Positions 658 through 51,110 are shown, counted from the stretch's first letter. The stretch: DNA of 64,000 bases from a phage (GCA_025611195.1 GCA_025611195.1_4718.2); one strand, 5' to 3'. Numbers and translations: made by a program. The notes: generated from the letters alone by a model not told the origin.

Positions 658-1161
658 TTACTCGCTGACAACCTCAACGGAACTGGGATCGGCGATCAGC
701 GCACGGTCGGTAGAACAATTGAAGAAGACCATGCCAACACCATCGCCGTTCGAGTTCAGGGTTGAACTTACGTAAGACAATGTTGGTTTATTCATGCGGT
801 AGAAGCGTTCGTTGGTGGTGGTATTGAACCCCAGATCAACGTAGTCTTTCACCGTGGTGTACAGCTGGGTGGACTCGAAAACGGTTACCGGAGAGTCAAC
901 GGTAAACTGACTACCTTCGTCCACAATCAGAACCTTATCGTTCCAGATTTCAGTGGTTGAGAACTTCGGTTTCCAGTGTTCGAATTCCTGGGTTGCTCCC
1001 CAGCAGGAATACACAGCGAGATCGCTGTTCTTCTCAACCGGCTTCAAACCCACCAGTTGTGTCAGGCCTTTATCCAGATTCGGTAAGCCTTCCAGTGTAG
1101 CACACCCACCCAGAGAAAGTACCATCAACATACCGAGAATAATCGCGCAAAGTTTCTTCAT
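658..1161 (-). CDS. predicted lipoprotein
   Basis: N-terminus MKKLCAIILGMLMVLSLGGC has a signal peptide and lipobox (LGGC). AAGGAAA Shine-Dalgarno before ATG. Lies just downstream of the tail fibre and its chaperone. Confidence 0.7.
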   Translation of the reverse strand: MKKLCAIILGMLMVLSLGGCATLEGLPNLDKGLTQLVGLKPVEKNSDLAVYSCWGATQEFEHWKPKFSTTEIWNDKVLIVDEGSQFTVDSPVTVFESTQLYTTVKDYVDLGFNTTTNERFYRMNKPTLSYVSSTLNSNGDGVGMVFFNCSTDRALIADPSSVEVVSE

Positions 1162-1205: not shown

Positions 1206-1622
1206 TTACACAGTTTTAGGAAATTCCGGCCAGTCGATATTTGGCGCAGCATCGGTATCGATAGCCGTCACCTCGTCAATGTAATCCAAAACAGCATTAA
1301 GTTGGGCTGTTTCTTCCGGAGTCAGTTTTCGCCCAGCCCGTAATTTTAACTGAATAAGATCAATGGAAGCTAGCGCAGAATCAATCAAAGATTTTTTCAT
1401 CTGTTCTGCCTCGGCGACGAGATCTTCGTGTTGCCGCTCGGGTTCCGGGGGTGCGGTAAACTCACCATTTGAGTATAACCAACCTATTCCAGGCGACACG
1501 GCTACCGTATCGCTAATGCTGACCAACTGTTGATTGTCAGATACATCGAGCTCTGCTTCGCCATCGTAAACAATCGTGTTTACTACTACCCCATTTTCAA
1601 TAACAGCGTATGATGTACTCAT
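1206..1622 (-). CDS. tfa: tail fibre assembly chaperone (lambda Tfa-like)
   Basis: C-terminal region (AEAEQMKKSL...TDAAPNIDWPEFP) resembles the lambda Tfa C-terminus (AEETKKSL...TSTAPDIEWPAVP). Start set at the ATG that overlaps the fibre stop (TAATG); the ORF-track start at 1646 is further upstream. Confidence 0.8.
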   Translation of the reverse strand: MSTSYAVIENGVVVNTIVYDGEAELDVSDNQQLVSISDTVAVSPGIGWLYSNGEFTAPPEPERQHEDLVAEAEQMKKSLIDSALASIDLIQLKLRAGRKLTPEETAQLNAVLDYIDEVTAIDTDAAPNIDWPEFPKTV

Positions 1623-4600
1623 TACATAAACTCCTCGATGATGCAAATCCCGTCAGCGCCACGCCCACCACGCATAACGGTTCCAGTGTAACCGTTATCG
1701 TAAGCGCCGCCACCGCCCGAACCTCGTGCGAGGCCGTTTGACCCACCGCCAACAGCTGCACGACCACCGCCACCCCAATATGACGCACCCCCACCACCAC
1801 ATACAGGAAATGCGCCAGCTTGACCGTCATCACCATCACCACCTGAAATGCGTATATCCCCGGTACTAGGTACACCACCGCTGCCACCGCCAGTGTTTGT
1901 GACGGTTGTTTTTCCTGCACCTTGCCCACCGGGAGCAGTCAGCAGGGATGCAAATTTACTATCCCCGCCCCTGTTTCCAGTTGTTGCCCCGGAACCGCCA
2001 GTGCCACCAGAACCAATTACAACAGAATAACTAGTAGCTGCTACCGTTATAACCGAAATTACTGTTGCCCCGGCCCCACCGCCAGCACCAAAAAACGTTT
2101 CGCTGCCGGAAAAAGCCTGACAACCGCCGCCACCGCCACCGCCGCCGGTTATCGTTACTCTAATCCGTTTTGTTCCTTGTGTTGGGGTGTACGTCCCTGA
2201 CGATGTGAAAACACGCATGTTCAGTAAACGTCCGACATATCCACTAGAATCGGCTAAACCAAGATCTTTAGCTGCTAACGTGATATTAGCTGTGCCATCG
2301 AAAGGTTTACCGTTAATCGTGCGTGCCGTCTGCAGCTTCGTGGCCGTTGCTGCGTTTCCTGATGTATTCTGGTTTCCCGCGGCGTTAACACCTGGTAGAT
2401 TGATGTTCGCACTACCGTCGAAAGACACCCCACCAATAGTGCGGGCTGTTTTCAGTTTTGTCGCCGTGGCAGCATTACCGGTCGTGTCTTGGTTACCGGT
2501 GGTGTTTACCCCAGGTAGGTTGATATTGGCTGTTCCGTTAAATGAAACACCACCAATCGTCCTTGCCGTTTGCAACTTCGTTGCGGATGCCGCATTCCCC
2601 GTGGTGTTTTGGTTACCCGTCGCATTCACGCCTGGGATGCTATCCTTAGATGTGTAGATCTGTGCCCATTCCGACCAGTTCGAGTCGGCCGCATCACGAC
2701 GTGAACGTAGGTAAGCTGGAGCGTGTGCGCCTGAGGTACCTGACCACCCAATGAGGATTTCACCTTCACCGACCGATGAAGCCCCTTTAAGATGAATGAT
2801 GTTACCATAAGCGGTGGGATATCCGTTATTGTACGCTTCATACATCTGGATGCCCGCATTGCTGCCCTGAGCCGTGTTAGCTAAGGCCGTAACACGACCT
2901 TTGGAAGCGAGAGCGTTAATACTGAAGCTAATATCCTTAGTACCGTCAAAGGCGACCCCATTAATCTTCCGTGCTGTTTGGAGTTTCGTAGCAGTAGCCG
3001 CATTACCAGAGGTACTCTGATTACCTGCTTTGTTCACGCCCGGTAAATCAATGTTGGCTGTTCCATCAAAGGACACACCCCCGATGGTTCTCGCTGTCTG
3101 GAGTTTTGTTGCTGAACCAGCGTTTCCAGAAGTGCTTTGATTACCTGCCGCGTTGACACCCGGTAGGTCAATGCTAGCAGAACCATCAAAAGAAACTCCA
3201 CCGATCGTGATCGGTGTTTTCAATTTCGTGGCTGTCGCAGCATTACCCGTCGTATTCTGATTGCCAGCAGCATTAACACCAGGTAATGCGATATCGGTCG
3301 TACCATCGAACGCAACACCACCGACTTTACGGGCGGTCTGTAGCTTGGTCGCTGTAGCCGCGTTGCCGCTGGTATTTTGCGTGCCTGCTTTATTTACGCC
3401 AGGCAAATCAATGTTCGCAGTACCATCAAAAGAAACACCCCCGATGGTTCTCGCGGTCTCAAGTTTGGTTGCGCTTCCTGCGTTTCCGCTGGTGCTTTGA
3501 TTTCCCGCTGCATCAACACCTGGTAGACTGATGCTGGCCGAACCATCGAAACTCACACCGCCGATAGTAACAGCGGTTTTCAACTTCGTCGCCGTTGCTG
3601 CGTTACCGGTTGTATTTTGATTGCCTGTCGCATTAACGCCCGGTAATACAATATCCGCTGTTCCGTCAAAGGCAACGCCACCGATTCTACGTGCAGTTTG
3701 TAGCTTGGTTGCACTAGCAGCGTTACCGCTGGTATTCTGGGTGCCAGCTTTGTTAACACCGGGGAGATCGATATTAGCAGAACCATCGAAGCTGACGCCA
3801 CCTATCGTTCTTGCAGTAGCGAGTTTAGCTGCTGTGGCTGCATTATTACCCACTTTCAGCCAATCATCCCATGGACCATCCTGGCCGTTCCATGATGCCG
3901 TTAAACTACGTACGTAAATATTGCCGGTACGTACAGTGTAACGTTGCGTTCCACCGAATTGTCCGGCAGGGAGCACTTCAAGGTAACCTGCAGCATTTGC
4001 TTCAGGGAAATTGTGGGCGACGTCCGCGTTCGTTGATACTGGTTTAGACCAAATACCCACAGACGCTTCAACCGGACCGTAAGTATTCAGATTTGCGTCG
4101 GTGGGGAGCTGTCCTCGAAAACGTTGGAATTGTGTTGCCGATAACCCCAACGTTGTTTGCATGCTTTCAATGCTGGATTGCTGTAGTAACGTTCGTGCTG
4201 TCGACGTAATCACGGCAAGCGCAACTTTATTAACGCCGGTGAAATACGGGAGTTTGTCTGCTGATGTCGCTAAACCTGAAAAGGCGGTCAGTAATGCGTT
4301 AAGGGGCTGCTTCCCAGCTAACGCATTTGTTACCGTCGTTGCGAAATTAGGATCACTTCCTATAGCTCGAGCCAGCTTATTAAGCGTATTTAGCGTCGCT
4401 GGTGATGAGTCGATCAGCGCTGCGATCGCACGCATCACAAATTCCGTGTTGGCAATCTGTTGACTGCTATTGTTAACTGCTGCGGTGGGCGCTGCTGGCG
4501 TACCAGTGAATACAGGGCTATTAAGATCCGCTTTGAGGGCGATGAGGCGTTTAAGCGCTTCGACATCAACTTTCAGGTTTTCCCATCCGATGAGAGAACC

Positions 4601-5500
4601 ACCACCGCTGGTATGATAACGGTTGTACCAGAAGTCACCGTTAACACCCAAAAAGAATATTCCCTTCTCTTCGTTTTGTGGGCCGGAACTATTTCGTGAT
4701 GCGCTGATATATTTGATTTTAATAAGGCCGTTAAACACCACTCCTGGGATTATTTCGCTGCTTCCAGCTAACTGTGATACTTGGTAAATCCCCGGGGTCG
4801 CGGCTTTAACCCACGTTAAGAATTCTGTTACTCCAGAGTTACCACTGAAATTCTTAACGTCGGTAAGTATCGCACCATAACCGAACATACCGGGCAGAGC
4901 AACTCGCCCGTTGGTACGGTCACGAATATTTGATGCGACCACAGGTAGCTGTTTACGAACGTTATTAACCGCCTTTGGTGTGGCCGATTTTGTCTCATCG
5001 TCACTATCGATGGCATTGCTCAGGATGGTCAGTCCTCGCGTAGCAGTAGTTGCATCAGGAAGAAATGCGTTATCCAACACCTTAAGCTGTATTGCACTCG
5101 TATTACTAACAACGACATGCATCTGACAGTTAAGAACGCTAGTTGCGCCTTCGGTAGGCGTAGGCTTATATCTTTCTGGCGCACTGCAGACGGCAATCAG
5201 AACACCCTTGTCGTCGTACAGACCGATCTCACGTACCCAGAACCCACCTTGACCAGCAGGAATAATACCCTCAACGACAATCCTGGTTGTACTATCGCCA
5301 TCCGCATGGATATTAGAAACTTCCCCACGATAAACTTCGTGAACAAGCGCTGTTTGGCTGGCGGTCGGGGTTGGTGTCGAGCCGTTACCATCACCAACGG
5401 CAAAGTGTGTGATTTTTAGTTTCTCACCGTCGGGAAGTAACGCAGCGGTGATACGTTCTGCTCCTTTATCGGTAACTACCGTTTTATATGCTGTACTCAT
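1622..5500 (-). CDS. tail fibre protein (P2 gpH-like N-terminus, repeat shaft, glycine-rich C-terminal tip)
   Basis: 1292 aa. N-terminus (KTVVTDKGAERITAALLPDGEKLKITHFAVGDG...GGFWVREIGLYDDKGVLIAV) matches the P2 gpH tail-collar fibre N-terminal domain. About eleven 38-aa shaft repeats (TATKLKTARTIGGVSFDGSANIDLPGVNAAGNQ). Poly-Gly C-terminal domain. Followed by Tfa. Confidence 0.9.
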   Translation of the reverse strand: MSTAYKTVVTDKGAERITAALLPDGEKLKITHFAVGDGNGSTPTPTASQTALVHEVYRGEVSNIHADGDSTTRIVVEGIIPAGQGGFWVREIGLYDDKGVLIAVCSAPERYKPTPTEGATSVLNCQMHVVVSNTSAIQLKVLDNAFLPDATTATRGLTILSNAIDSDDETKSATPKAVNNVRKQLPVVASNIRDRTNGRVALPGMFGYGAILTDVKNFSGNSGVTEFLTWVKAATPGIYQVSQLAGSSEIIPGVVFNGLIKIKYISASRNSSGPQNEEKGIFFLGVNGDFWYNRYHTSGGGSLIGWENLKVDVEALKRLIALKADLNSPVFTGTPAAPTAAVNNSSQQIANTEFVMRAIAALIDSSPATLNTLNKLARAIGSDPNFATTVTNALAGKQPLNALLTAFSGLATSADKLPYFTGVNKVALAVITSTARTLLQQSSIESMQTTLGLSATQFQRFRGQLPTDANLNTYGPVEASVGIWSKPVSTNADVAHNFPEANAAGYLEVLPAGQFGGTQRYTVRTGNIYVRSLTASWNGQDGPWDDWLKVGNNAATAAKLATARTIGGVSFDGSANIDLPGVNKAGTQNTSGNAASATKLQTARRIGGVAFDGTADIVLPGVNATGNQNTTGNAATATKLKTAVTIGGVSFDGSASISLPGVDAAGNQSTSGNAGSATKLETARTIGGVSFDGTANIDLPGVNKAGTQNTSGNAATATKLQTARKVGGVAFDGTTDIALPGVNAAGNQNTTGNAATATKLKTPITIGGVSFDGSASIDLPGVNAAGNQSTSGNAGSATKLQTARTIGGVSFDGTANIDLPGVNKAGNQSTSGNAATATKLQTARKINGVAFDGTKDISFSINALASKGRVTALANTAQGSNAGIQMYEAYNNGYPTAYGNIIHLKGASSVGEGEILIGWSGTSGAHAPAYLRSRRDAADSNWSEWAQIYTSKDSIPGVNATGNQNTTGNAASATKLQTARTIGGVSFNGTANINLPGVNTTGNQDTTGNAATATKLKTARTIGGVSFDGSANINLPGVNAAGNQNTSGNAATATKLQTARTINGKPFDGTANITLAAKDLGLADSSGYVGRLLNMRVFTSSGTYTPTQGTKRIRVTITGGGGGGGGCQAFSGSETFFGAGGGAGATVISVITVAATSYSVVIGSGGTGGSGATTGNRGGDSKFASLLTAPGGQGAGKTTVTNTGGGSGGVPSTGDIRISGGDGDDGQAGAFPVCGGGGASYWGGGGRAAVGGGSNGLARGSGGGGAYDNGYTGTVMRGGRGADGICIIEEFM
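2290..2640 (-). repeat. intragenic tandem repeat block, about 3 x 114 bp (fibre shaft repeats)
   Basis: Imperfect 114-bp units within the fibre gene, each encoding a ...TARTIGGVSFDG..NI.LPGVN..GNQ.T.GNAA... unit. Confidence 0.8.
2925..3840 (-). repeat. intragenic tandem repeat block, about 8 x 114 bp with 342-bp higher-order periodicity
   Basis: Same 114-bp unit as 2290..2640. Three unit subtypes (K-, R- and V-type) recur in order, giving a 342-bp supra-repeat. Separated from the other block by a roughly 260-bp non-repeat insert. Confidence 0.8.
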
Positions 5501-5508
5501 GGTGTTTT

Positions 5509-6036
5509 TTATCCTGGATAAATAGTGATGATATCACCAATGACCGTTGTGGCACCGGCGTAAAGATGAGCCGGAGATACATCGTGTTGGTTTGTCACGG
5601 TAAGATCCAATCGACCACGCCAAACCATGGAGGTATTCGCGATGGGGATAGAAATCTTTTTGGATATATCGTCACGAAAATCAATAACAGTGGCAAGGGT
5701 AACTGTATCAAAGTCAACGTCGGGGTCAAAGACGAACCCGTATTGATCTGAAATCGCCCGAATAATCGCGTGTATAGTTGTTGTCTTAACAGACTCTAAA
5801 ACGATTTTTACTGGTATTCCTAGAAATGCCTTCGCAATATCGCGTCGAGCGTAAACGATAAAACTTTCACCGTTCCACCTTGTTCCTTCATTTGCCGTGA
5901 CGATCACTTTTGCCCTGTTAGCACCGGAACTTCCATCCAAGACTAATGTAAGATCGGAGCTGTTGAATACGCTACTGTTACGTCTGTTTATCAACGACGT
6001 CAGTTCGTCTTTCCATGGCGGGTAAAGTGAACACAT
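5509..6036 (-). CDS. short paralog carrying only the shared N-terminal module of the fibre-associated family
   Basis: MCSLYPPWKDELTSLINRRN...YARRDIAKAFLGIPVKIVL aligns to the N-termini of the 6194..7948, 11599..12429 and 48293..49744 products. Start moved to ATG 6036 (GGAGGAGGG upstream). Stop is 8 nt from the fibre start. Confidence 0.6.
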   Translation of the reverse strand: MCSLYPPWKDELTSLINRRNSSVFNSSDLTLVLDGSSGANRAKVIVTANEGTRWNGESFIVYARRDIAKAFLGIPVKIVLESVKTTTIHAIIRAISDQYGFVFDPDVDFDTVTLATVIDFRDDISKKISIPIANTSMVWRGRLDLTVTNQHDVSPAHLYAGATTVIGDIITIYPG

Positions 6037-6125
6037 ATGTGCACCCTCCTCCAACATAACCAGATTAAATATATATTTCTTAAACGTGGGACACGATTCG
6101 AGATAAACGTAAACGGCCTTAACGA

Positions 6126-6181
6126 CCGCATAAAATTCCGCGCATATTACCCCTCTATCCCGACAAAGCGAGATAGAGGGG
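6126..6181 (-). promoter_or_regulatory. intergenic stem-loop (CCCCTCTATC/GATAGAGGGG, 12-nt loop) followed on the minus strand by TTTTATGCGG
   Basis: Perfect 10-bp inverted repeat at 6150..6181 between the stop of 6194..7948 and the start of 5509..6036; TTTTATGCGG at 6126..6135 in minus orientation. Confidence 0.5.
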
Positions 6182-6193
6182 AGGATAATACGA

Positions 6194-7948
6194 TTATGCT
6201 GCTACATATCCAGGCCAACGTTCTCTTGGCCAGTTTGTTGCGCCCTGTCCAACGTTGTCCTTACCAGAAATTACGTTACTTACATCCCATCCACTCAGAT
6301 CCTGATTGAACGCGGTGTTTTCGCGCATCATGAGATCGATCTTACGTAGTGAACGGGTATTCCAGCCGGAAATGTCTTGGTTGAATGCTGTATTGTAGGC
6401 AAACATGTTAGACACGCTTTGTAATTTTGAGGTGTTCCAACCACTGATGTCGCTATTGAACGGCATGCTTGAGAACATGCTGCTCGCATCAACAAGGCTG
6501 TCGGTTTTCCAATTAACCAGTTTATCACCATCAAGTGCAGCGCTGCTGCTGAACATAAAACTCATGTCGTTAACTTTGGACACATCCCATTTATCCAACC
6601 CGTTACCCACGAACGCAGGACAGGACGAGAACATATAACTCATATTAGTAACCCGACTCACATTCCATTTACTGAAGTCGAGGTTAAGTTTCTGACACCC
6701 TAAGAAGGTTTTAGACATGTTGGTGATACGACTAACATCCCACTCTTGGATGTTGGGGTCGTTAAGTGTCGTTAAATAGTTGAACAACATCGCTAACGAC
6801 GTCCATTTCTCTGGAATCCGGTTTGGTACCGTACGAAGCGATGCGAGGTTGTTGGTTGACGGAGAGCAGAACATGCCGTTATCCCAATTTACGATCTCCG
6901 TAATTTTGGACCCTTTGATCGTCTGAGTGACGTTACCATCTTTCACCATACCTGTAGCGACGATGGTATATTCACCGGTGTCCGCATAATCGTGGGAGTA
7001 GGAGTTGTTGCTTGAGGTCTCCGTTACTTTATTCCCATCACCCCAATCGATATTGACCTTATCCCATCCACCTAGATAGAACTGTACTTTGCCTCCGGTG
7101 GCTTTTAGGATGTATTTACCCCCATTGTCTGTATAATAACAGACGACCATCGAACCGTACAGATTACCTATCTGCCAATCATCCTTTTGCGTTATTGCGA
7201 TTTGCGCCGCACCACGCTGTACGAAGAGTACCGTACGATTCTCGGCAGTCTGTAATGTGGTTATTGCCTGAGCCTTATCGTCCTCGCTAATTTCGCCAGA
7301 CACCACCAAAGCGCTTAACATCCTTTCGAAGTATTCGATCGGTAACTCGGTTCCAACAGACTTATCAACAGACGATACGGCAAGATCACCCAATGCTGCG
7401 GTGGTAGCCAACGCCAATGAACCCTTGGTCATATCTGTTTCTTGGATGTAATGCAGTCCTGTAAGCTGGTACGCTTGAATAATAGTAATCAGGTTCAGCG
7501 TATCGTTAACGACCTGTACCTGTAAATTCCCGGACCATACATAACTGCTTTCAGCAATCGGTAGTTCGACCGACTGAATACCCGATGTTTCAAAGGTGAT
7601 CTTCTTATTAAGATCGGTTTCCAGGAAATCAACCGCGAGGTCGAAATTCATGCCGTACTTTTCAGCGATGGAATCTACGATATTCTTGAAAGCAACATCT
7701 GTGCTTACGATAAAACGTAACGGAATTCCTGTAAACGCTTTAGCGATATCTCGACGAACATACGTAAGCGATTGTTCGAAGAAATAGGGACTGTTATCTC
7801 CAGGCTTGATGGTTACCTGACACGCTTCAGGATATTCAGCTGGGATGAACGATTCGAATTTAACATCAGATTCCTTCAACGAAAGCTTGTTATTTCGGTT
7901 CACTAACGCCAGAAGATCGGCTTTCCATCCGGGGTAAACTGTAGACAT
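6194..7948 (-). CDS. fibre-family protein: shared N-terminal module plus C-terminal DUF285/BspA-type repeats
   Basis: N-terminus MSTVYPGWKADLLALVNRNN... is paralogous to three other products. C-terminal half has repeated WDVS.V.NMS.MF..C.AFNQDISGW units typical of DUF285 (Mycoplasma/BspA-like) repeats. Start moved to ATG 7948 (GGAGTG upstream). Confidence 0.7.
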   Translation of the reverse strand: MSTVYPGWKADLLALVNRNNKLSLKESDVKFESFIPAEYPEACQVTIKPGDNSPYFFEQSLTYVRRDIAKAFTGIPLRFIVSTDVAFKNIVDSIAEKYGMNFDLAVDFLETDLNKKITFETSGIQSVELPIAESSYVWSGNLQVQVVNDTLNLITIIQAYQLTGLHYIQETDMTKGSLALATTAALGDLAVSSVDKSVGTELPIEYFERMLSALVVSGEISEDDKAQAITTLQTAENRTVLFVQRGAAQIAITQKDDWQIGNLYGSMVVCYYTDNGGKYILKATGGKVQFYLGGWDKVNIDWGDGNKVTETSSNNSYSHDYADTGEYTIVATGMVKDGNVTQTIKGSKITEIVNWDNGMFCSPSTNNLASLRTVPNRIPEKWTSLAMLFNYLTTLNDPNIQEWDVSRITNMSKTFLGCQKLNLDFSKWNVSRVTNMSYMFSSCPAFVGNGLDKWDVSKVNDMSFMFSSSAALDGDKLVNWKTDSLVDASSMFSSMPFNSDISGWNTSKLQSVSNMFAYNTAFNQDISGWNTRSLRKIDLMMRENTAFNQDLSGWDVSNVISGKDNVGQGATNWPRERWPGYVAA

Positions 7949-7966
7949 AAGCACTCCAAAGTTCAT

Positions 7967-7983
7967 GGGGCGGTAACCGCCCC
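7967..7983 (-). promoter_or_regulatory. GC-rich stem-loop GGGGCGG-TAA-CCGCCCC
   Basis: Perfect 7-bp stem between the stop of 7989..11585 and the start of 6194..7948. Confidence 0.45.
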
Positions 7984-7988
7984 GTTGG

Positions 7989-10900
7989 TTAAATTGTTGG
8001 TTTAATATCGCGTAATAGGGCGATATAATAGCCTAATCCTCGGAGGATCTCCCCGCTCCAGAAACCAAAATACATTCCGTCTCTGCCGAGATTAGCACTA
8101 TCTGGTGCAGGACTCCACCCACCATTCATTGCGTCATCAACGGTGTAACGGTTTATGTAGTTCTCAACGATCTCGTTATAAACATTAACAGCAACAGAAT
8201 AGCCTTTATCGTTGGGATGTTCGTACAACATCGCTAACGACGCTCCGGCTAACCATAATCCCGCCATATGACCAGTAAAGTCGTTCGGGATAAAGGTAGG
8301 GGGTTTATCCATCGGAAAATCCGTAGGAGACCGATAGGCGTTTTCCTGCTGATACGTAAACAAGAAATCGATCCAATGACTGATGTAAGTGGATAACTTC
8401 TCAGGGACAGCCAAACCACGATCAAGCAGTCCTGCATAAAGCCTCACCGCTGAAAAGAAAGCCCTCGGCTGATAACCAGACCATGCTGTCTGATCGCCGA
8501 AGTGGTACATCGTAAAATCATTAACTTTTGATCCGCTTGGCGCATCCCAACGATCCCACACGTACGCACTCGCACCCGGCCCTAAAACCCCGAATTTCTG
8601 ATAATACCACTGTTGTGAGTCATACCAGAAATTCACAACATTCTGGATCATAAGGTCACGTCGTTCAGCCGGTACGTCCATATCCAGGAAGACCCATGGA
8701 TGTTGGTAGCCGGGATAAGGCTGCCCGCGCCAACTGTCGAACGTCGGTGCGTTAGGGATATAGTTGTTCGAGAACGGAATAATACCCGGAGTATAAGGCA
8801 ACGGATCGAGACGCTGGTTGACAATCGTGCAATCACCAACCCGTAATGTTCCCTCCGCCTCAAAGGTTGCTTTTAACGTAAACAGCATGGTATATCCGTC
8901 ATCCGTGGTGTAAGTTGATGGCGGATTGTTGATGGTGTAAAGCTTAAATACCCCTTCAGCGATATCGCTGTCATCGGGCAAGAACAAAATTTCAGTTGAG
9001 CCATCACCCCACACAGGTGCAGAAGGTTTAGGGTCAGTATCCGTGTGGTTCGGTTGATACCCCGAGAGCGTCCATCCGGTAGCCGAAAGCGTCAACGTAT
9101 TTCTTGATGTGGTGGTCGGTAGCATCTGCCACCATCGCCAACCATTCGCATCTTCTACACGAACGTTGAAGTCAATCGACGCGAAATAACTGACCTGTCT
9201 TACGATCTGTTTTGCTGTTGGATTGAATTCAAATTGCCCGCCTGCCGCAGTAAGTTGTGCTTTTAAGAACAACCCATCCCAGGAATCTTCCGCCGCTTCG
9301 CTGAATTCTGTTGTGATTGCGACATCGTCTTTCCAGCCGACTTTATCGGCCGATATCAGCACAGAACCCGTAACAGCATCACCGGTTGGCGTTGAAGCTT
9401 CATCAACCGCATCAGCAGGAATCAACGAGCCTATTTTGAAATCCCATCCTTTCGGTTCAACGCTGGAAGGTAATACCAGCTTATACGTTTTGGCTTTCGC
9501 TTCGGTTTTGTCCAAAGAAAGCGATAACGAGATCTCAACCGGAATTGCAAGGCCTGTCGTATCTTTACCTCCGCAGGTTACACGAAGAATCGATTCGCGA
9601 TTTACGCGGAACGGAATGGCCTGCTGTTCGAGGTAAATTTGTGCTGAAGATGCTTGAATCACGATCCAGCCATCGGTATCACGCGTGATTGTGAACGGCG
9701 CTTTCGATGGGTATGTATACGTGTAAGCGATACCGTCGGTATCGTAACGATTGGTTCCTTTTACCTGACGGAAGAACTTATCGTTGGCGTCGATACGGGT
9801 ATATTCTTCAATTGTAAACAAAGATGCCTTGTACGCTTTCTGATAGCGCTCCTGCTGCGTTAAACGGTATAAGGTGTAGGCTGATTCACAAAACCACTGT
9901 TCGGCGTCTGACGCGTTTCCCATGTAGTCTCTGGTGACTGGCACCTGGATCGGTCGGTTATGCTGACATTCATTCGTTTTAATAAGGTATCCGCCATATT
10001 CAACAGGAACACGGGGTGCCCATGCAACCAAGTAAGAACCGTTGACGGATTTATCTTTGAGTACGATGGTGCCCACCTCATCGTCGGTACACGCTGCAAG
10101 ATCGTCCCCGTCGGCACTTACGTAACGTTTTGTGCGTAACGCAACTTTCTCGATAGGAAACACCGTACCCTTTGTATTCCAGTCAATTGTCCCATCATCA
10201 TTGGTTTTGAACACGTCCGCGTTCAAATTCTGCCAGCCGAGTTTACCCTCATAGACCTTAACAACAAGATCCGCGTATTCCCCGAACGTTGGTGCACCAT
10301 GTGCTATTTTTCCAATACCGTTGGTGAATGTAACCACTGTGTCATGGAAACCACCATGTGTTGGGTAATCGTCTTTTGCAAGAGGATAATGGGCCAACAC
10401 AGGCTGTTTACCATTAACAATCCAGTTAGCGATCCAGCGTGCTGGTGTATCCGGTGGTTCAAGGCCTGCATAGAACGCTTTTATATACGCATCGAACGAT
10501 GATTCTGCTAATGTAAGATAGTGCGCTTTAAGTTTGGTATCATCCGTTGTATGACTGAATATACCAGCACCCAGAATTAACAACGACTGTCCTTCTGTTG
10601 TCGCGTCACCGTCTGGTTGTGCTTCTTGTCGTGTTGCTGCGATGAAATGGCGATTGTTTACCATTACCCCGCTTTCATTTAACACGTAATGATCGGTTTC
10701 TGGGTTGGTAAACGTTCCTGTATTTCGGGTTAAGAAGCTTGCATGGCCGTAACCAACGAAATTAACCGGCGACGCTGTAATCATCCATTTACCGATAAGT
10801 TGGGCGACGTCGTTATAACGCTCCGATGCGGTGATTTGTTTCACGTACCAATCTTTACGGTTGAATGTCCAAAGCAGGAAGTAATACGTGGCATTGATTT

Positions 10901-11585
10901 CCATTACCGGAAACGTCGGTGTTAACGGCTCCAGCGTTAAGTAGTTGCTCCAATCAATCTGCCCACCAACAACCGACGGGGTAATCTCTAATAACTGACA
11001 CCATTCATAACGGTCCGACACACTACTGGACGTTGCTGGTAAAGGTAACTTGTATACGCCAGTACGATTCAGATTGAATGCTTTCCTAGCTGATCCTAAA
11101 TCAACATAAATACCGGATGATGCGTTTGCACTAGATGTCTCCAAAGCACCTAGCGTTGACCGATACATTGAGATGACCAGCGTATCTTTCCAGTAAGGGT
11201 TATCCTTGGTTGGTTCTAGTGCGATTTGTGCAAAGATGCTGTTCTGTGTCCCTAACTGGTATGTTGCACTTAAAGATTCTTCTGTGAAGTAACTTTCTGC
11301 AATCGCCAGATGGAACTGCTCGTTCAATAACGCGAGTGCCGCTCGACCAGAAACCGCTTCATTACCGGTTTCTTTTTTCATGATTGCGCCGAACGGAAAC
11401 AGTGTCGCGAATGACCGTTTTGGTTTATTAACCGTAACCGTCCCCGTGTAATTTCCAACACCATCAAGTTTTTGACTATCGCCGACAGCAGTGACTGTGA
11501 CGCCATCAACTGGGATATCTGTTTTGTTTAGTGCGTTGAGTTGGTCGACCAGATCCTGTTTATCATCAGGTAAGAATGTCGTCAT
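7989..11585 (-). CDS. large protein in the tail-fibre module (function unknown)
   Basis: 1198-aa ORF, tightly packed with neighbours and embedded among fibre-family genes. No catalytic motif recognised with confidence; a virion structural role is inferred from context only. Confidence 0.65.
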   Translation of the reverse strand: MTTFLPDDKQDLVDQLNALNKTDIPVDGVTVTAVGDSQKLDGVGNYTGTVTVNKPKRSFATLFPFGAIMKKETGNEAVSGRAALALLNEQFHLAIAESYFTEESLSATYQLGTQNSIFAQIALEPTKDNPYWKDTLVISMYRSTLGALETSSANASSGIYVDLGSARKAFNLNRTGVYKLPLPATSSSVSDRYEWCQLLEITPSVVGGQIDWSNYLTLEPLTPTFPVMEINATYYFLLWTFNRKDWYVKQITASERYNDVAQLIGKWMITASPVNFVGYGHASFLTRNTGTFTNPETDHYVLNESGVMVNNRHFIAATRQEAQPDGDATTEGQSLLILGAGIFSHTTDDTKLKAHYLTLAESSFDAYIKAFYAGLEPPDTPARWIANWIVNGKQPVLAHYPLAKDDYPTHGGFHDTVVTFTNGIGKIAHGAPTFGEYADLVVKVYEGKLGWQNLNADVFKTNDDGTIDWNTKGTVFPIEKVALRTKRYVSADGDDLAACTDDEVGTIVLKDKSVNGSYLVAWAPRVPVEYGGYLIKTNECQHNRPIQVPVTRDYMGNASDAEQWFCESAYTLYRLTQQERYQKAYKASLFTIEEYTRIDANDKFFRQVKGTNRYDTDGIAYTYTYPSKAPFTITRDTDGWIVIQASSAQIYLEQQAIPFRVNRESILRVTCGGKDTTGLAIPVEISLSLSLDKTEAKAKTYKLVLPSSVEPKGWDFKIGSLIPADAVDEASTPTGDAVTGSVLISADKVGWKDDVAITTEFSEAAEDSWDGLFLKAQLTAAGGQFEFNPTAKQIVRQVSYFASIDFNVRVEDANGWRWWQMLPTTTSRNTLTLSATGWTLSGYQPNHTDTDPKPSAPVWGDGSTEILFLPDDSDIAEGVFKLYTINNPPSTYTTDDGYTMLFTLKATFEAEGTLRVGDCTIVNQRLDPLPYTPGIIPFSNNYIPNAPTFDSWRGQPYPGYQHPWVFLDMDVPAERRDLMIQNVVNFWYDSQQWYYQKFGVLGPGASAYVWDRWDAPSGSKVNDFTMYHFGDQTAWSGYQPRAFFSAVRLYAGLLDRGLAVPEKLSTYISHWIDFLFTYQQENAYRSPTDFPMDKPPTFIPNDFTGHMAGLWLAGASLAMLYEHPNDKGYSVAVNVYNEIVENYINRYTVDDAMNGGWSPAPDSANLGRDGMYFGFWSGEILRGLGYYIALLRDIKPTI

Positions 11586-11598
11586 TATTTACTCCGCC

Positions 11599-12429
11599 TT
11601 AATCGTAACTGAAATAAAGTTTGCTGCTGACGCCGCTATCGGAATGAGGTTTTAATACCAGAACAGAGCTTCCGAACGACGGAAGTATCGGAACATTTAA
11701 ATCGTTTGCGTCGGCAACTTTTCCATTATAAACGACACTGGCTGTTGTGATAAGTTCCCAAGCTAAGGCATAACTCATTGAAATCAGTGAAGAGGCTAAA
11801 CGGAATGCGTTGTATCCTTCAGGAGAATCTCCAACCGACAATGAACGTATCGCATCTTGCGGTGGTAAATTTAGCTTGATGCCGTAGGTGCTAAACGTGT
11901 GGAAATCCCCTTGTTTACTATCTTCTGGATAATAAGAGGTTAGCGGTTCTCGCACCGTAATCAGTTCGCTAATATCGGTATTTACCGCTTTTCGCGCGAG
12001 GAATTGAAACGTACCGTACCACGATGCTGATGCATCAGAACGAATAGGAACAGTTATGGTTTTCTCGCCGCTTTCAAATTCAATCTGTGTCGCTAACATT
12101 GAAGAATCAAAGATCGTTAAATCGATCTTCAACCCATACTTCTTAAACAGCTGCGTTAAGCAGTCTGCTATAGTCGTCATATCAGCAACGACAATAAAAG
12201 GTTGGTGTTTGATAAAGAGCTTATTAATGTCTCGACGTTGAAGATAAACCTGTACCGGGTCTTCGATATAGTAAGTCGATTGTGATGTGGGGACTATAGA
12301 AAGGCGTAGCCGACCTGATGCACCATACCAGGCTGGCGTTAGCGTAATGTCTGACAGGGATAACGGATGCTGGAGATCGGTGTTTATTTTAGATAACACT
12401 TCCTCTTGCCATGATGCTTCAGGATACAT
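11599..12429 (-). CDS. fibre-family paralog (shared N-terminal module, distinct C-terminus)
   Basis: N-terminus MYPEASWQEEVLSKIN...YLQRRDINKLF aligns with the shared module. GAGG before ATG. Confidence 0.6.
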   Translation of the reverse strand: MYPEASWQEEVLSKINTDLQHPLSLSDITLTPAWYGASGRLRLSIVPTSQSTYYIEDPVQVYLQRRDINKLFIKHQPFIVVADMTTIADCLTQLFKKYGLKIDLTIFDSSMLATQIEFESGEKTITVPIRSDASASWYGTFQFLARKAVNTDISELITVREPLTSYYPEDSKQGDFHTFSTYGIKLNLPPQDAIRSLSVGDSPEGYNAFRLASSLISMSYALAWELITTASVVYNGKVADANDLNVPILPSFGSSVLVLKPHSDSGVSSKLYFSYD

Positions 12430-12488
12430 GCTGACCTCATAGATGATCGTTGATAGGAAAGAGACCTAATTCATACCATGGGAACCTC

Positions 12489-12543
12489 AAAAAAAAAAAA
12501 CAAAAATAGGAAAACGGTGCTCATCCTTTTAGGGATGAGCACC
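12489..12543 (-). terminator. rho-independent terminator (minus strand)
   Basis: Perfect 11-bp stem GGTGCTCATCC / GGATGAGCACC with 6-nt loop, followed on the minus strand by a long U-tract (plus-strand A-run at 12489..12514). Sits downstream of 12565..13143. Confidence 0.8.
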
Positions 12544-12564
12544 GCGTACCGTTATATCGAATGA

Positions 12565-13143
12565 TTAGTAAGGAATCAGATCGTTAAGCTTTTCTTCTTC
12601 GATGACAAAGAAGTTGTTCTGGTCGTCTAAATCTGTTAACAGGACTTGTCCGACAGTAAAGCACGTGCCACCCTTCTTAGGCATCCATACCGGCTCATTC
12701 GTTACCTTATCGGGATACCATTTGAAACGATTGGTATCTAAGAAGAACGCTGCTTTGTTCGCTTTATCCGTTGAATGATAACTAACCAATGCAGGCCATT
12801 CAATCCAGGTATTTGTGCACGGCACATGTAAAGGATACCATGCACGCCAGCGTTTGCCTGGCTTGTTAGGATCAACCCAATACTCGGCAGTCAATACAGC
12901 ATCTTTATAATGTTTCTGTATTAACATTTCGAGCACAAGCTCATTACCCTTTGGTGAATCTAAAGTCACTTCAGCCATATAAAGGGATTTAGGTAATCCA
13001 GACTGTTTTGCGGGTGGTATTACGACACCGGTAACCAACGGTCTGCTCGGCTTACGCTTCTGTTCTTTCCGATGTGTGTAAAGGAATAGCCCGATAGCTG
13101 CGGCAACAAGTATAATAAACAACACTACCTTAATCCAATTCAT
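12565..13143 (-). CDS. membrane-anchored protein
   Basis: N-terminal hydrophobic helix (NWIKVVLFIILVAAAIGLFLY) followed by basic residues. ATGA overlap with the upstream gene. Confidence 0.6.
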   Translation of the reverse strand: MNWIKVVLFIILVAAAIGLFLYTHRKEQKRKPSRPLVTGVVIPPAKQSGLPKSLYMAEVTLDSPKGNELVLEMLIQKHYKDAVLTAEYWVDPNKPGKRWRAWYPLHVPCTNTWIEWPALVSYHSTDKANKAAFFLDTNRFKWYPDKVTNEPVWMPKKGGTCFTVGQVLLTDLDDQNNFFVIEEEKLNDLIPY

Positions 13144-34088: not shown

Positions 34089-34295
34089 TCAGTCCAACAT
34101 AAGCCATGGCATCGCTTTCGCGATAGAATCCACCGCAGCATTTGCGATCCTTCGTTCAGTCGTTGGTACCACGTGCGCCACGAACCGTTTCCCTTTATTG
34201 CAACCTTTCTTGTGTTTTCCTTTGACTAAACGAACACCAATCATGTCGTTGATAACATGATTTAGTATGTGGCGCTGTAGAGAATTAATCATCAC
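34089..34295 (-). CDS. small basic protein with related Lys/Gly motif
   Basis: IGVRLVKGKHKKGCNKGKRFVAHVV; start overlaps the stop of the upstream small ORF. Confidence 0.45.
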   Translation of the reverse strand: MMINSLQRHILNHVINDMIGVRLVKGKHKKGCNKGKRFVAHVVPTTERRIANAAVDSIAKAMPWLMLD

Positions 34296-36146: not shown

Positions 36147-36175
36147 GCATAAAAGCCTCCCATTACGGGAGGCTT
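36147..36175 (-). promoter_or_regulatory. stem-loop AAGCCTCCC-ATTAC-GGGAGGCTT followed on the minus strand by TTTTATGCTG
   Basis: 9-bp stem 36153..36175 after the stop of 36187..36735; TTTTATGC at 36147..36154 (minus). Confidence 0.55.
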
Positions 36176-42674: not shown

Positions 42675-42686
42675 AATAGCCTCGTG

Positions 42687-42713
42687 AAGGTGGATGGTAC
42701 ACCCATCCACCTT
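42687..42713 (-). promoter_or_regulatory. stem-loop AAGGTGGATGG-TACAC-CCATCCACCTT
   Basis: Perfect 11-bp stem between the stop of 42722..43243 and the start of 42441..42674. Confidence 0.5.
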
Positions 42714-42721
42714 CCTCCATG

Positions 42722-45968: not shown

Positions 45969-46048
45969 GGATTTGTGTTGGTCCGTTTCGATGCCCATCG
46001 TATTTTATGGATTGTCGAATGACGTCATTTTTAAGGGACATCCCCGAC

Positions 46049-46088
46049 CTCCTCCCCACACCTTTCCTGGGGAGGAGTTTTATCATAC
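46049..46088 (+). promoter_or_regulatory. stem-loop CTCCTCCCC/GGGGAGGAG followed by TTTTATCATAC, upstream of plus-strand helicase gene
   Basis: 9-bp stem at 46049..46077, then TTTTATCATAC at 46078..46088, 24 nt before ATG 46112. The same TTTTATCATAC occurs at 54712..54722. Confidence 0.45.
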
Positions 46089-46111
46089 TTTCTATTAATT
46101 CGAGCGCGATT

Positions 46112-48193: not shown

Positions 48194-48196
48194 TTA

Positions 48197-48233
48197 AGAA
48201 GCTCTGCCTGATGTCAGGCAGAGCTTTATGCTG
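48197..48233 (+). terminator. rho-independent terminator after the helicase gene, followed by TTTATGCTG
   Basis: At least 10-bp stem GCTCTGCCTG / CAGGCAGAGC with a 4-nt loop, directly after stop TAA (48191..48193), followed by TTTATGCTGCG. Confidence 0.75.
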
Positions 48234-48292
48234 CGTTCGCTGCAAAATCGTATGACGTATATGCGTTGTACTTATTAAATAGGACTGAATAC

Positions 48293-49744
48293 ATGAAACT
48301 CAAACAAAGCTGGAAAGACGAACTTCTTGCGTTAGTAAATAGCAAAAACAGTTTACAGCTGACATTAGACGACGTAAAATTTGAACTAACTGAACCGGTA
48401 AGCGAAGTGCCCGGAACGGTTACTGTCACGATCAAACCGAACGATGATAGCCGTTACTTTAACGAGCAGTCTCTGACCTACGTTCGTCGAGACATCGCTA
48501 AAAACTTCACCGGGATCCCGTTACGGGTTATCGTTAAAAATGATACCGCCGTAAAGGATATCATCAACACGATCGCTGAACGTTACGGATTGGTATTTGA
48601 CACAACCGTCGACTTCCTCGAATCCGAGCTGAATAAACAAATTACGTTCGCAGACACCGGTATTAAAGACATCACGGTTCCGGTTGCAAACACGTCTTAT
48701 GTTTGGGCTGGTAATCTTCAGTTCAACATTGCTAACGATACGTTAAGCTTGATTACGATCATCAAGAAAACCGATCTTACGAATCTGGTTTATCTGGATG
48801 GTGTTGAAGCTGATACAACGGGATCGTTACTATTAGCAACGACCTCGGTTATCGACGAAAACGGAAATACCGAAACAACTGAAGGTGTCCTTGACGCCGC
48901 GCACTTCCAGAATGTCCTGAACGTCATGGTTCGTTATGGTGATATTACCAACGAACAAATGCAACAAGCAATGCAGACAATTAACCAAAGCGAAGACGTT
49001 CGTAGAGTAGAGGTGAGATCATACGGTGACGCCGAATTACTGGTAACCACCAAGAAAGATTGGGCTATCGGTAGCCTTAAGGGTGCTATGGCTGTTGGAC
49101 GCGCTTCACCTAAACCGATCCAATACGTTCTTAAAACAAAAGGCGGCAGCATTATATTATCATTAAATGGTTGGACAAATGTTTCCATCGATTGGGGTGA
49201 TGGGAATAAGACGACGGAGGACTCAGTCGATAATGAATATCGGCACAATTATACGGACACTACAGAACGTACGATCGTCGCTACGGGTACCCCTACCAAC
49301 GTTGAAGATACAGAGGTACAGCAAAGCTTCACCGGTGGTAACATTACAGAAATCGTTGACTGGAACAACGGATTACCTAAGGCCCCATCATTACTTGCGG
49401 CGAACAGTTTAACTAAGGTTCCTAATTATATCCCGGCATACTGGACATCGTTAGAAGGTATGTTTACGAGATGTAGCGTTATTAACGACGTGAACATCAC
49501 CAAATGGAACACCCGCAACATTACTTCAATGAAGGACCTCTTCTACGGTTGCGCTGCGTTCAACCAACCGATCGGTTCGTGGGATGTTTCGTCTGTTAAG
49601 AATATCGACAATATGTTGTCTGGATGCTTCGCGTTCAATCAGGATCTGAGTGGTTGGACATTCCCGGCAGGCACTTCACACATTAACTACGACGCCATGA
49701 CCGCCGTGTGGAGTACTGAACACAAACCACACTTCACCGAGTAA
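48293..49744 (+). CDS. fibre-family paralog on the plus strand: shared N-terminal module plus DUF285/BspA-type repeats
   Basis: MKLKQSWKDELLALVNSKN...YVRRDIAKNFTGIPLRVIV aligns with the 6194..7948 product. C-terminus has the same TSMKDLFYGCAAFNQPIGSWDVSSV units. Start moved to ATG 48293 (AGGA upstream). Confidence 0.7.
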   Translation: MKLKQSWKDELLALVNSKNSLQLTLDDVKFELTEPVSEVPGTVTVTIKPNDDSRYFNEQSLTYVRRDIAKNFTGIPLRVIVKNDTAVKDIINTIAERYGLVFDTTVDFLESELNKQITFADTGIKDITVPVANTSYVWAGNLQFNIANDTLSLITIIKKTDLTNLVYLDGVEADTTGSLLLATTSVIDENGNTETTEGVLDAAHFQNVLNVMVRYGDITNEQMQQAMQTINQSEDVRRVEVRSYGDAELLVTTKKDWAIGSLKGAMAVGRASPKPIQYVLKTKGGSIILSLNGWTNVSIDWGDGNKTTEDSVDNEYRHNYTDTTERTIVATGTPTNVEDTEVQQSFTGGNITEIVDWNNGLPKAPSLLAANSLTKVPNYIPAYWTSLEGMFTRCSVINDVNITKWNTRNITSMKDLFYGCAAFNQPIGSWDVSSVKNIDNMLSGCFAFNQDLSGWTFPAGTSHINYDAMTAVWSTEHKPHFTE

Positions 49745-49762
49745 AAAAAATAGTTAGCATAT

Positions 49763-49795
49763 CTTCCTCCCTACCCATAACGGGCGGGGAGGAAG
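49763..49795. terminator. bidirectional stem-loop at convergent gene junction
   Basis: CTTCCTCCC / GGGAGGAAG 9-bp stem with 15-nt loop between the plus gene (stop 49744, then an A-run) and the minus gene (stop 49813). Flanked by AGCATAT and TTTATG. Confidence 0.6.
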
Positions 49796-49812
49796 GTTTA
49801 TGTGGCTATGAC

Positions 49813-50151
49813 TTAGAACCAGAGTTCTTTCATGAGGTAGGCTTCCATATCGTAGATAAGCCACTCGTCAGGAATTTCTAAAGGATCGTCTTCGGTTAAG
49901 GTCAGCATGTGCAGGGCGAACGCACGCTTAATATCGTTCAGCAGTTTCTCGTCGTCGTAACCTTCAGGTAACTTACGGTCTACCAGTTGGGTTTGTTTAT
50001 AGACAGCACAGAACGCTTCTGGGCTGTGTTTGTCCATCGGAAATTGTTCAGCAGCCTGAACCATCGTCAACGTCCAGCTTACAACATTGTAGCGCTCACC
50101 GTTAATTTCACTGAACTGATCATCGATTAAACAGATTTGTTGTACGTTCAT
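49813..50151 (-). CDS. hypothetical acidic protein
   Basis: 112-aa ORF; ATGA overlap. Confidence 0.5.
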   Translation of the reverse strand: MNVQQICLIDDQFSEINGERYNVVSWTLTMVQAAEQFPMDKHSPEAFCAVYKQTQLVDRKLPEGYDDEKLLNDIKRAFALHMLTLTEDDPLEIPDEWLIYDMEAYLMKELWF

Positions 50152-51041: not shown

Positions 51042-51056
51042 ACATGCTCCGGTTAT

Positions 51057-51094
51057 AAGGGCCTGCTTCGAGGCCCTTCATTGATTTTTTGATT
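51057..51094 (+). promoter_or_regulatory. stem-loop AAGGGCC/GGCCCTT followed on the plus strand by a T-tract
   Basis: Hairpin 51057..51078 then CATTGATTTTTTGATT. Has plus-strand terminator polarity although the flanking genes are on the minus strand. Confidence 0.4.
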
Positions 51095-51110
51095 CCACCA
51101 AACGCTATCG

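Follow-up and report, generated by a model that had tools for sequence, protein, structure and literature searches.

DUF7941 proteins with exchanged C-terminal domains at a variable, tail-fibre-linked locus of a Goslar-like jumbo phage

A stretch of 64,000 nucleotides from a phage (GCA_025611195.1, sequence GCA_025611195.1_4718.2), referred to here as the window, encodes five proteins, the products of genes A to E (Table 1), that have an N-terminal module of about 150 residues in common and differ in what follows it. Judged by its profile matches, this module is DUF7941, a domain that has been described before from nucleus-forming jumbo phages. The proteins are homologous to a component of a solved phage baseplate, their C-terminal parts include domains of host-recognition type, and the locus that holds A, B, C and E varies among related phages. 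The explanation that we favour, and regard as fairly likely as a whole, is that the module would be a self-associating assembly domain, not a receptor binder, by which paralogues would chain head-to-tail into flexible filaments starting from the peripheral baseplate; the variable C-termini would then give the function, namely binding in the case of PARCEL repeats and polysaccharide processing in the case of a six-hairpin fold.

In outline this finding is correct and already known, because the domain is in Pfam and because the family, its architecture, its presence in the virion and its probable role have been published for the near-identical Escherichia phage vB_EcoM_Goslar (bioRxiv 10.64898/2026.04.21.720040, April 2026; hereafter the Goslar preprint). 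New here are the sequence-level support for E, the member B, the C-terminal peptide of A, and a survey of the locus variants, among which one motif has been the site of recombination more than once. The DUF7941 family, which went unrecognised until 2025-2026, seems to give nucleus-forming jumbo phages their means of reaching for and recognising hosts, and these phages are of interest for phage therapy, since they evade DNA-targeting defences.

Origin of the window and its genes

When regions 5000-13000 and 46000-52700 of the window were compared with phage genomes by megablast, the sole match was vB_EcoM_Goslar, at 93% DNA identity. Besides this megablast result, phage matches were obtained for Serratia PCH45 and Xanthomonas Xoo-sp14. 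Goslar is a Goslarvirus of 237 kb and a chimallivirus, one of the phiKZ-like jumbo phages that form a nucleus-like compartment. DUF7941 has been described as exclusive to chimalliviruses (Goslar preprint), and by the DNA identity to Goslar the genes of the window have this origin as well.

The initial annotation had proposed A, B, C and D as members of one family, and all four open reading frames (ORFs) are present, encoding 175, 584, 276 and 483 residues, respectively. A mechanical ORF list contains longer variants with starts at 6057, 7966 and 48266; the shorter starts first proposed were preferred, because a Shine-Dalgarno sequence precedes each of them and the resulting lengths agree with those of the orthologues. 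Amino-acid identities to the Goslar orthologues are 92.6% (A/gp091), 91.7% (C/gp093), 91.7% (D/gp161) and 94.9% (E/gp092). B has no counterpart in Goslar, where only 206 bp lie between gp091 and gp092.

The shared N-terminal module

All pairs among A, B, C and D align over about 145-165 residues, with 29-38% identity and scores of 48-98 bits. The Pfam model PF25613 (DUF7941), which is 276 positions long and has a curated gathering score of 27 bits, matches each of them independently, with 57.1 bits for A, 83.0 for B, 39.8 for C and 87.3 for D (E-values in Table 1). These pairwise scores and Pfam matches put the N-terminal similarity claimed at the outset far above chance. PHROGs assigns A-D to its families 1037 and 2935, both 'virion structural protein'. 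The two motifs by which the module had been recognised, W-K/Q-x-E/D-L and YxRRDIAKxFxGIP, are present in A, B and D but not in C, which has the looser forms SWQEEV and RRDINKLF and no GIP. The four proteins are thus related as proposed, but the family of the window has five members, since E, encoded between B and C, had been overlooked; comparison of a broad profile of 135 module sequences with the ORFs of the window gave no further copy of the module.

Neither a classical fibre or spike anchor domain nor a trimeric fibre or beta-helix body was found for A-E in Pfam, PHROGs and sequence and structure searches of the PDB, and the check for tail-fibre docking domains recommended in the initial annotation likewise gave no match in these databases. 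A PDB sequence search with the alignment of the four proteins returned nothing meaningful. By contrast, the neighbouring gene at 1622..5500 has a classical Phage_tail_fib N-terminus.

Domain organisation of the five members

In C, the N-terminal domain is followed by the linker motif ISELITVREPLTSYY and by a C-terminal domain, and the match to PF25613 reaches from position 56 to position 274 of the model. When the C-terminal halves of 28 other members, C excluded, were combined into a profile, it matched residues 192-276 of C (E 4.7e-11) and nothing else in the window. The C-terminus of C, once taken for an unrelated domain, is actually the canonical second half of DUF7941, and C alone among the members of the window has the full architecture of N-terminal domain, linker and C-terminal domain. 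A canonical C-terminal domain was also considered for B, D and E and was rejected, as the same profile gives it no support. The linker motif, LxxxIxxxxLxGLxY, is family-wide and lies directly after the domain in B, C, D and phiKZ gp127.

In B, the DUF7941 domain, the linker motif LNLITIIQAYQLTGLHY and a middle region with a weak PKD-like match are followed by PARCEL/DUF285 repeats at residues 383-564; D has the same order, with a weak PKD-like match in its middle region and repeats at residues 385-457. The DUF285 repeats that had been noticed in both proteins were confirmed with PF03382 (155.4 bits in B and 78.2 in D, for a cut-off of 25) and are also matched by TIGR02167 (74.6 bits in B; 32.4 bits, E 5.4e-8, in D; cut-off 30); their NCBIfam name is PARCEL repeats of surface proteins. 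B and D are paralogous well beyond the shared module, with 48% identity over 445 residues. Their repeats, which are of leucine-rich type, would probably bind a surface ligand.

A begins with the DUF7941 domain (residues 1-150), which a variable spacer (151-160) separates from a conserved peptide at the C-terminus (161-175), of the pattern G..T..GD..TIYPG. Among 28 A-type sequences (A and 27 orthologues), invariant columns make up 53% of this tail peptide, 46% of the domain and 10% of the spacer. An AlphaFold2 model of A, with a predicted local distance difference test score (pLDDT) of 64, has a disordered tail at residues 155-175. Conserved as the fold is, yet predicted to be disordered, the tail bears what looks like the signature of a docking peptide.

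E is the divergent member, and the RRDIAK motif is missing from its module. This module escaped detection by Pfam, by the four-sequence profile and by an initial hhalign run (probability 0.4%). The broad profile matches E residues 7-145 at E 1.4e-8, the next ORF of the window being at 0.54; a leave-out profile, from which all representatives with even a weak BLAST match to E had been removed, still gives E 6.3e-8; and hhalign with a 71-sequence alignment of the family gives a probability of 94.5% and E 7.4e-8 over 138 columns. The Goslar orthologue, gp92, is itself listed as a DUF7941 protein in the Goslar preprint. A homologue search with the N-terminus of E in a database of 5.8 billion proteins returned two fragments only, and a PDB sequence search with full-length E found nothing.

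Between the module and the C-terminal region, E has about 600 residues without matches; a match to PHROG 2871 ('tail protein', E 1e-294) covers residues 279-1193. The C-terminal region was modelled with nine homologues, with a pLDDT of 62 overall and 67-96 in the helical part, and its predicted fold is an (alpha/alpha)6 barrel resembling that of six-hairpin glycosidases, preceded by a beta-sandwich like that of carbohydrate-binding modules. The predicted fold suggests a glycosidase activity, and with this pair of domains E would probably bind or cleave polysaccharide.

Within the family, A is the short form, C the complete form, and B and D are fusions. C would accordingly be the complete, 'plain' protomer of the proposed filaments, and A a minimal one that ends in its conserved peptide.

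Baseplate homology, virion data and the filament model

A profile of the 71 family sequences, which include A and C, matches chain 0 of PDB entry 9xqd (PHIKZ127) at residues 12-290 with E 9.2e-26. In a Foldseek search with the model of A, the same chain was the only PDB match below E 0.001 (7e-6), with all 150 modelled residues aligned. In the phiKZ atlas, each 'star lobe' is modelled with a single gp127, where the band of gp139 dimers ends on the outside (PDB 9XQD; Nat Commun 2026, PMC13250141); the code is printed as 9QXD in the Goslar preprint. In phiKZ, this member of the family thus occupies the outer tip of each of the six baseplate spokes, from which filaments would extend.

Ten DUF7941 proteins have been listed in Goslar, namely gp22, 23, 31, 33, 34, 86, 91, 92, 93 and 161, and further domains, of carbohydrate-binding, glycoside hydrolase or leucine-rich repeat (LRR) type, are noted for gp86, gp92 and gp161 (Goslar preprint). 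The architectures described there for the Goslar paralogues cover the same spectrum as those of A-E. The virion association of A, C, D and E is taken from proteomics on their Goslar orthologues, which are 92-95% identical. The copies per virion estimated by liquid chromatography-tandem mass spectrometry are about 2144 for gp23, 577 for gp22, 112 for gp33 and 111 for gp161, and about 4.9 for gp092, 4.8 for gp093, 4.5 for gp086 and 1.2 for gp091 (2 peptides), with about 43 for the tail fibre gp090 (Goslar preprint, Table S4). Negative stain shows filaments of purified gp22, and for pairs of paralogues AlphaFold 3 predicts a head-to-tail arrangement in which the linker of one docks on the N-terminal domain of the next; a 'fibre cloud' with host-recognition domains, anchored at the peripheral baseplate, has been proposed (Goslar preprint). 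Transferred to the window, the linker that follows the domain of one protomer would dock onto the N-terminal domain of the next, and the products of A-E would take part in such filaments.

The initial annotation had read the family as tail fibres or tailspikes sharing a baseplate-docking module. The match to gp127 and the Goslar proteomics uphold the part of this reading that concerns a domain-shuffled virion family tied to the baseplate with host-recognition-like C-termini; the classical docking domain is what it loses. In its stricter version, the members would be alternative receptor-binding proteins of the classical kind, each in a docking site of its own on the baseplate, as in branched tailspikes. 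The N-terminal place of the module and the varying C-termini agree with this, as do the direct contact of phiKZ gp127 with the baseplate spoke, at one copy per lobe, and the roughly five copies of gp92, gp93 and gp86, near a six-fold stoichiometry; those of the C and E orthologues are close to the six anchor sites. However, gp22, gp23 and gp161 (about 580, 2140 and 111 copies) are far beyond the available baseplate sites, so that with copy numbers of hundreds to thousands one docking site per paralogue cannot hold. In addition, gp22 forms filaments alone, and Pfam, PHROGs and the PDB gave neither similarity to known fibre or spike anchors nor a sign of a trimeric fibre or beta-helix. We therefore consider separate docking sites for all members rather unlikely, although docking of one protein per site is possible for the members with about 5-6 copies.

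Several points weigh against the filament explanation. The first linker motif is missing in A and E, and we know of no ligand for PARCEL/DUF285 repeats of phages. The model of A is moderate, and in spite of the significant Foldseek E-value its superposition on gp127 is poor, with template modelling (TM) scores of 0.32-0.37. As for the published data, filaments have been demonstrated for Goslar gp22 alone, in vitro, and the virion preparation also held chimallin and PhuZ (Goslar preprint), so that low-copy detections such as that of gp091 could be contamination; moreover, no DUF7941 density is resolved in the Goslar baseplate. Since gp091 is barely detected, a structural role of all members is not established.

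Variation of the locus among related phages

For comparison with the window, 12 related loci were taken from metagenomes, IMG/VR and GenBank; of these, L001 covers the same region as L012, which is Goslar. A search for such loci with the four-sequence alignment returned Goslar-like contigs only, a wider distribution being outside its reach. Among the 13 loci (the window and the 12 relatives), at least seven layouts occur between the homologue of gp094 and the genes after the fibre. The order C-E-B-A-fibre of the window is also that of L006; C-E-A-fibre is found in Goslar (L001 and L012) and L013, and B-A-fibre in L009, L010 and L011. In L007 and L008, a truncated C (215 residues) and a fragment of E (residues 929-1170) precede B-A-fibre, and L003 has a B/A hybrid followed by the fibre. 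L014, and in part L005, has a C stub (81 residues), an E fragment (732-1198), a B/A hybrid and the fibre chaperone, without the fibre, and L004 has an E fragment (743-1198), B split in two, A and the chaperone, again without the fibre.

B is found in six of the related loci (L006-L011), at 76-84% identity. A recent insertion or duplication of B in the phage of the window was considered and rejected, since B is only 48% identical to D and occupies the same position in these six loci; it is simpler to assume that B is missing from Goslar and L013. An exact-sequence look-up of B matched no contig. B is thus a PARCEL-repeat member that most relatives have and that the model phage Goslar is without.

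Intact C occurs only beside intact E, and both are lost or degraded together across relatives. Because of this joint loss, the gap of only 12-13 nucleotides between the two genes (13 in the window, where C lies upstream of E) and the equal copy number of their orthologues, about 5, C is seen with E as a pair, which suggests that the two may work together in the way put forward for phiKZ gp126-gp127.

All 12 related loci have either an intact A or an intact B/A hybrid with a second half of A type; wherever a fibre gene is present, this A or hybrid gene lies 6-8 nucleotides upstream of it. These observations bear on a second alternative, by which some members, chiefly A, would be non-functional in the virion and would be tail-fibre assembly factors or decaying remnants of duplications. 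The copy number of the A orthologue, about 1.2 (2 peptides) against 43 for the fibre, would fit this, and truncations, split genes and hybrids abound at the locus in relatives; with A or an A-type hybrid intact throughout, its last 15 residues as conserved as the fold and its position before the fibre kept, such a role is nevertheless improbable. A location of the proteins inside the head, or their ejection, which the filing of PHROG 1037, 2935 and 3589 under 'head and packaging: virion structural protein' might imply, is very hard to credit, given that the sole solved member lies in the outer baseplate, that the C-termini are extracellular types of domain that bind carbohydrates or surfaces and that the genes lie among tail-fibre genes.

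Three contigs have no long tail-fibre gene, and A or the hybrid is directly followed by the fibre-chaperone gene (L004 3702-4653, L005 2024-2978, L014 3835-4840); in the same contigs E is cut down to its C-terminal 456 to about 470 residues. They could be natural fibre-less variants or defective genomes.

B/A hybrids and the RRDIAKAF-GIP patch

The hybrid genes of L003 (5426-5956) and L005 (2024-2554) encode 176 residues each, their first 200 or so nucleotides being of B type and the rest of A type. In L005, 97 of 110 informative sites on the left are B-type and 59 of 64 on the right A-type, with the crossover at nucleotides 218-225, in the G-I-P codons, and with parents that resemble the genes of the window. 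The corresponding figures in L003 are 100 of 106 and 58 of 64, with the crossover at nucleotides 204-210, in the A-K-A-F codons, and parents that resemble the genes of L011. The two crossovers are 10-15 nucleotides apart, and as they differ in both position and parents, they represent two independent events in one 36-nucleotide RRDIAKAF-GIP patch, encoded by the RRDIAKAFTGIP codons of B and the RRDIAKAFLGIP codons of A. The first 45 nucleotides of the genes excepted, this patch has the highest DNA identity between A and B. The protein encoded by a further gene, L014 3835-4416, also looks like a hybrid, sharing 68% identity with A and 61% with B. A metagenomic protein of 573 residues (P0186) joins E residues 743-1140 (91% identity) to B residues 384-584 (83% identity), so that part of the glycosidase-like region stands directly on PARCEL repeats, without the DUF7941 module.

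By these sequence comparisons the locus is a rearrangement hot spot. Three cassettes would lie between the gp094 homologue and the tail-fibre chaperone, namely the pair of C and E, B by itself, and A together with the tail fibre, and these would be gained, lost and recombined between related phages. The two independent hybrids, the E/B chimera and the at least seven layouts have led us to a more tentative reading, which is possible but on balance doubtful, in which the RRDIAKAF-GIP patch would be a recombination joint used to swap, fuse and delete the separable host-recognition cassettes C+E, B and A+fibre, and the members with about six copies would seed differing arm tips. If true, this would be a natural module-shuffling system for host range in Goslar-like phages. 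As a variable, recombining locus in genomes that are otherwise 93% identical, it is an obvious place to seek and engineer host-range determinants.

Gene D as a separate transcription unit

The position of D beside an SNF2 helicase gene, 40 kb from the other members, had been noted as a difficulty. D does lie there, but this is not a problem: the orthologue gp161, at about 111 per virion, is the most abundant of the four, and D has a hairpin and a TATG of its own. A 12-bp hairpin is directly followed by TATG 63 nucleotides upstream of the D start; Goslar has an annotated terminator at the same place, and another hairpin lies downstream of D. A scan for sigma-70 promoters and terminators around D gave results no better than shuffled sequence, which for sigma-70 is expected because the phage uses its own polymerases. 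The late promoter of phiKZ, used by the non-virion RNA polymerase, has the consensus TATG, with initiation at G (PMC4666361). In the window, TATG lies within 16 nucleotides of 5 of the 24 strand-specific perfect hairpins, against a background of 3%, and one of these hairpin-TATG elements is located between B and A. Their arrangement suggests that they may be back-to-back units of terminator and late promoter between genes. The hairpin upstream of D probably ends the helicase transcript and the TATG probably gives D a late-type promoter, which would make D an independent late transcription unit; the helicase neighbour then says nothing on the function of D.

The family beyond the window

A profile of the four modules, compared with 1.84 billion representative proteins, gave 170 clusters at E <= 0.001. 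In the best 150 of these 170 clusters, the module is N-terminal in nearly all, and the proteins range from 51 to 1478 residues. Among 148 representatives, 49 are domain-only (130-215 residues), 35 canonical (216-330 residues), 18 intermediate and 43 longer than 450 residues. Of 49 long members, 11 carry DUF285, one the 'non-contractile tail sheath' TIM barrel of the gp86 type and one LRR_5, and the remaining ones have no Pfam domain at E <= 1e-5. With 11 of 49 long members carrying it, fusion to DUF285 recurs within the phage family.

An orthologue of Goslar gp086 (870 residues), another DUF7941 fusion, lies a few genes past the left edge of the window, upstream of position 1, so that the gene cluster of the family extends beyond it. 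Fusions of this type carry the 'non-contractile tail sheath' N-terminal and TIM-barrel domains (PF23844, PF23845), as in L004 (6085-8697) and L006 (16427-19042).

Neighbouring genes

The tail-fibre gene is tightly coupled to A, which lies 8 nucleotides upstream of it. Its product has 80% identity to Goslar gp090 (1292 against 1324 residues), the neighbours being far less diverged, and consists mostly of repeats of about 44 residues (…GGVSFDGSANIDLPGVN…ATKLQTAR…). In the window, the fibre has a glycine-rich domain at its end, and the next gene encodes a Caudo_TAP chaperone; among the fibres of L003, L006, L009-L011 and L013, several end in a self-cleaving Peptidase_S74 chaperone domain, and the fibre tip is therefore swapped as well.

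Just downstream of the tail-fibre chaperone gene, an ORF of 167 residues (658-1161, minus strand) has a lipoprotein-type signal peptide (MKKLCAIILGMLMVLSLGGC) and matches Goslar gp088 in length and position. A phage lipoprotein beside fibre genes is reminiscent of receptor-blocking proteins such as T5 Llp. Goslar gp088 is present at about 737 copies per virion (Goslar preprint, Table S4).

Table 1. Coordinates of the DUF7941 genes, their domains and associated elements in the 64,000-nucleotide window
Feature	Position	Strand	Evidence
Tail-fibre gene, 1292 residues, P1 gpS / P2 gpH type	1622..5500	-	Pfam Phage_tail_fib (E 2.4e-42), Phage_fiber_2, Gly_rich_2
Gene A, 175 residues, gp091 orthologue	5509..6036	-	Pfam DUF7941 (E 2.6e-15)
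Conserved C-terminal peptide of A, residues 161-175	5512..5556	-	invariant columns, A-type sequences
RRDIAKAFLGIP codons of A, residues 64-75, crossover site of hybrids	5812..5847	-	A/B identity profile, breakpoints
10-bp hairpin (6181-6150), then TAATATG (TATG 6146-6143), between B and A	6143..6181	-	sequence
Gene B, 584 residues	6194..7948	-	Pfam DUF7941 (E 3.3e-23), DUF285 (E 6.5e-46); TIGR02167 (E 3.3e-21)
PARCEL/DUF285 repeats of B	6257..6802	-	Pfam, TIGR02167
RRDIAKAFTGIP codons of B, residues 65-76, crossover partner site	7721..7756	-	hybrid breakpoints
Gene E, 1198 residues, annotated 'tail protein', gp092 orthologue	7989..11585	-	PHROG 2871
(alpha/alpha)6 six-hairpin glycosidase-like domain of E (predicted), about residues 962-1192	8010..8702	-	structure model
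Divergent DUF7941 N-terminal domain of E, residues 7-145	11151..11567	-	broad profile, leave-out profile, hhalign
Gene C, 276 residues, complete canonical DUF7941 protein, gp093 orthologue	11599..12429	-	Pfam DUF7941 (E 4.7e-10), C-terminal profile
Hairpin-TATG site, GC-rich hairpin with TATG within few bases	34239..34262	+	
Hairpin-TATG site, GC-rich hairpin with TATG within few bases	36153..36175	-	
Hairpin-TATG site, GC-rich hairpin with TATG within few bases	42686..42714	-	
12-bp hairpin (48199-48226), then TATG (48227-48230), upstream of D	48199..48230	+	sequence, hairpin scan
Gene D, 483 residues, gp161 orthologue	48293..49744	+	Pfam DUF7941 (E 1.6e-24), DUF285 (E 5.3e-22)
PARCEL/DUF285 repeats of D	49445..49663	+	Pfam, TIGR02167

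Comparison with known systems

The closest system is that of Goslar, whose gp91, gp92, gp93 and gp161 are the orthologues of A, E, C and D and agree with them in gene order, context and domain reading. Unlike Goslar, the phage of the window has the extra member B between the orthologues of gp91 and gp92, and its tail fibre is 80% identical to that of Goslar.

Branched multi-tailspike systems, such as TSP1-4 of CBA120, gp63.1/gp66 of G7C and those of Klebsiella phage PhiK64-1, have shared N-terminal adaptor domains. They are alike in that several receptor-binding or depolymerase proteins are carried per virion, with a conserved N-terminal part and swapped C-termini encoded by clustered mosaic genes. 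Their adaptors differ from DUF7941, no sequence or fold similarity having been found in Pfam, PHROGs and a PDB fold search, and so does the assembly: that proposed for DUF7941 consists of linear chains of monomers, in thousands of copies, whereas branched tailspikes form a fixed, branched complex of trimers.

The gp127 protein of phiKZ resembles C in having the N-terminal domain, the linker and the C-terminal domain, and belongs to the same family by profile and fold search. It differs in that the identity is 13% in the structural alignment, and the baseplate position has been shown for phiKZ alone. A head-to-tail heterodimer of gp126 and gp127 has been predicted and fitted into map density, and phiKZ is reported with about three members, none of them listed with PARCEL or glycosidase fusions (Goslar preprint). 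By analogy, the gp126-gp127 pair may serve as a model for the adjacent C and E.

As for the C-terminal domains, the repeats of B and D match those of the PARCEL/DUF285 (BspA-like) surface proteins of Mycoplasma, Listeria and other bacteria; in the bacterial proteins they are joined to an anchor of lipoprotein or cell-wall type, whereas in B and D they are joined to an assembly module of the phage virion.

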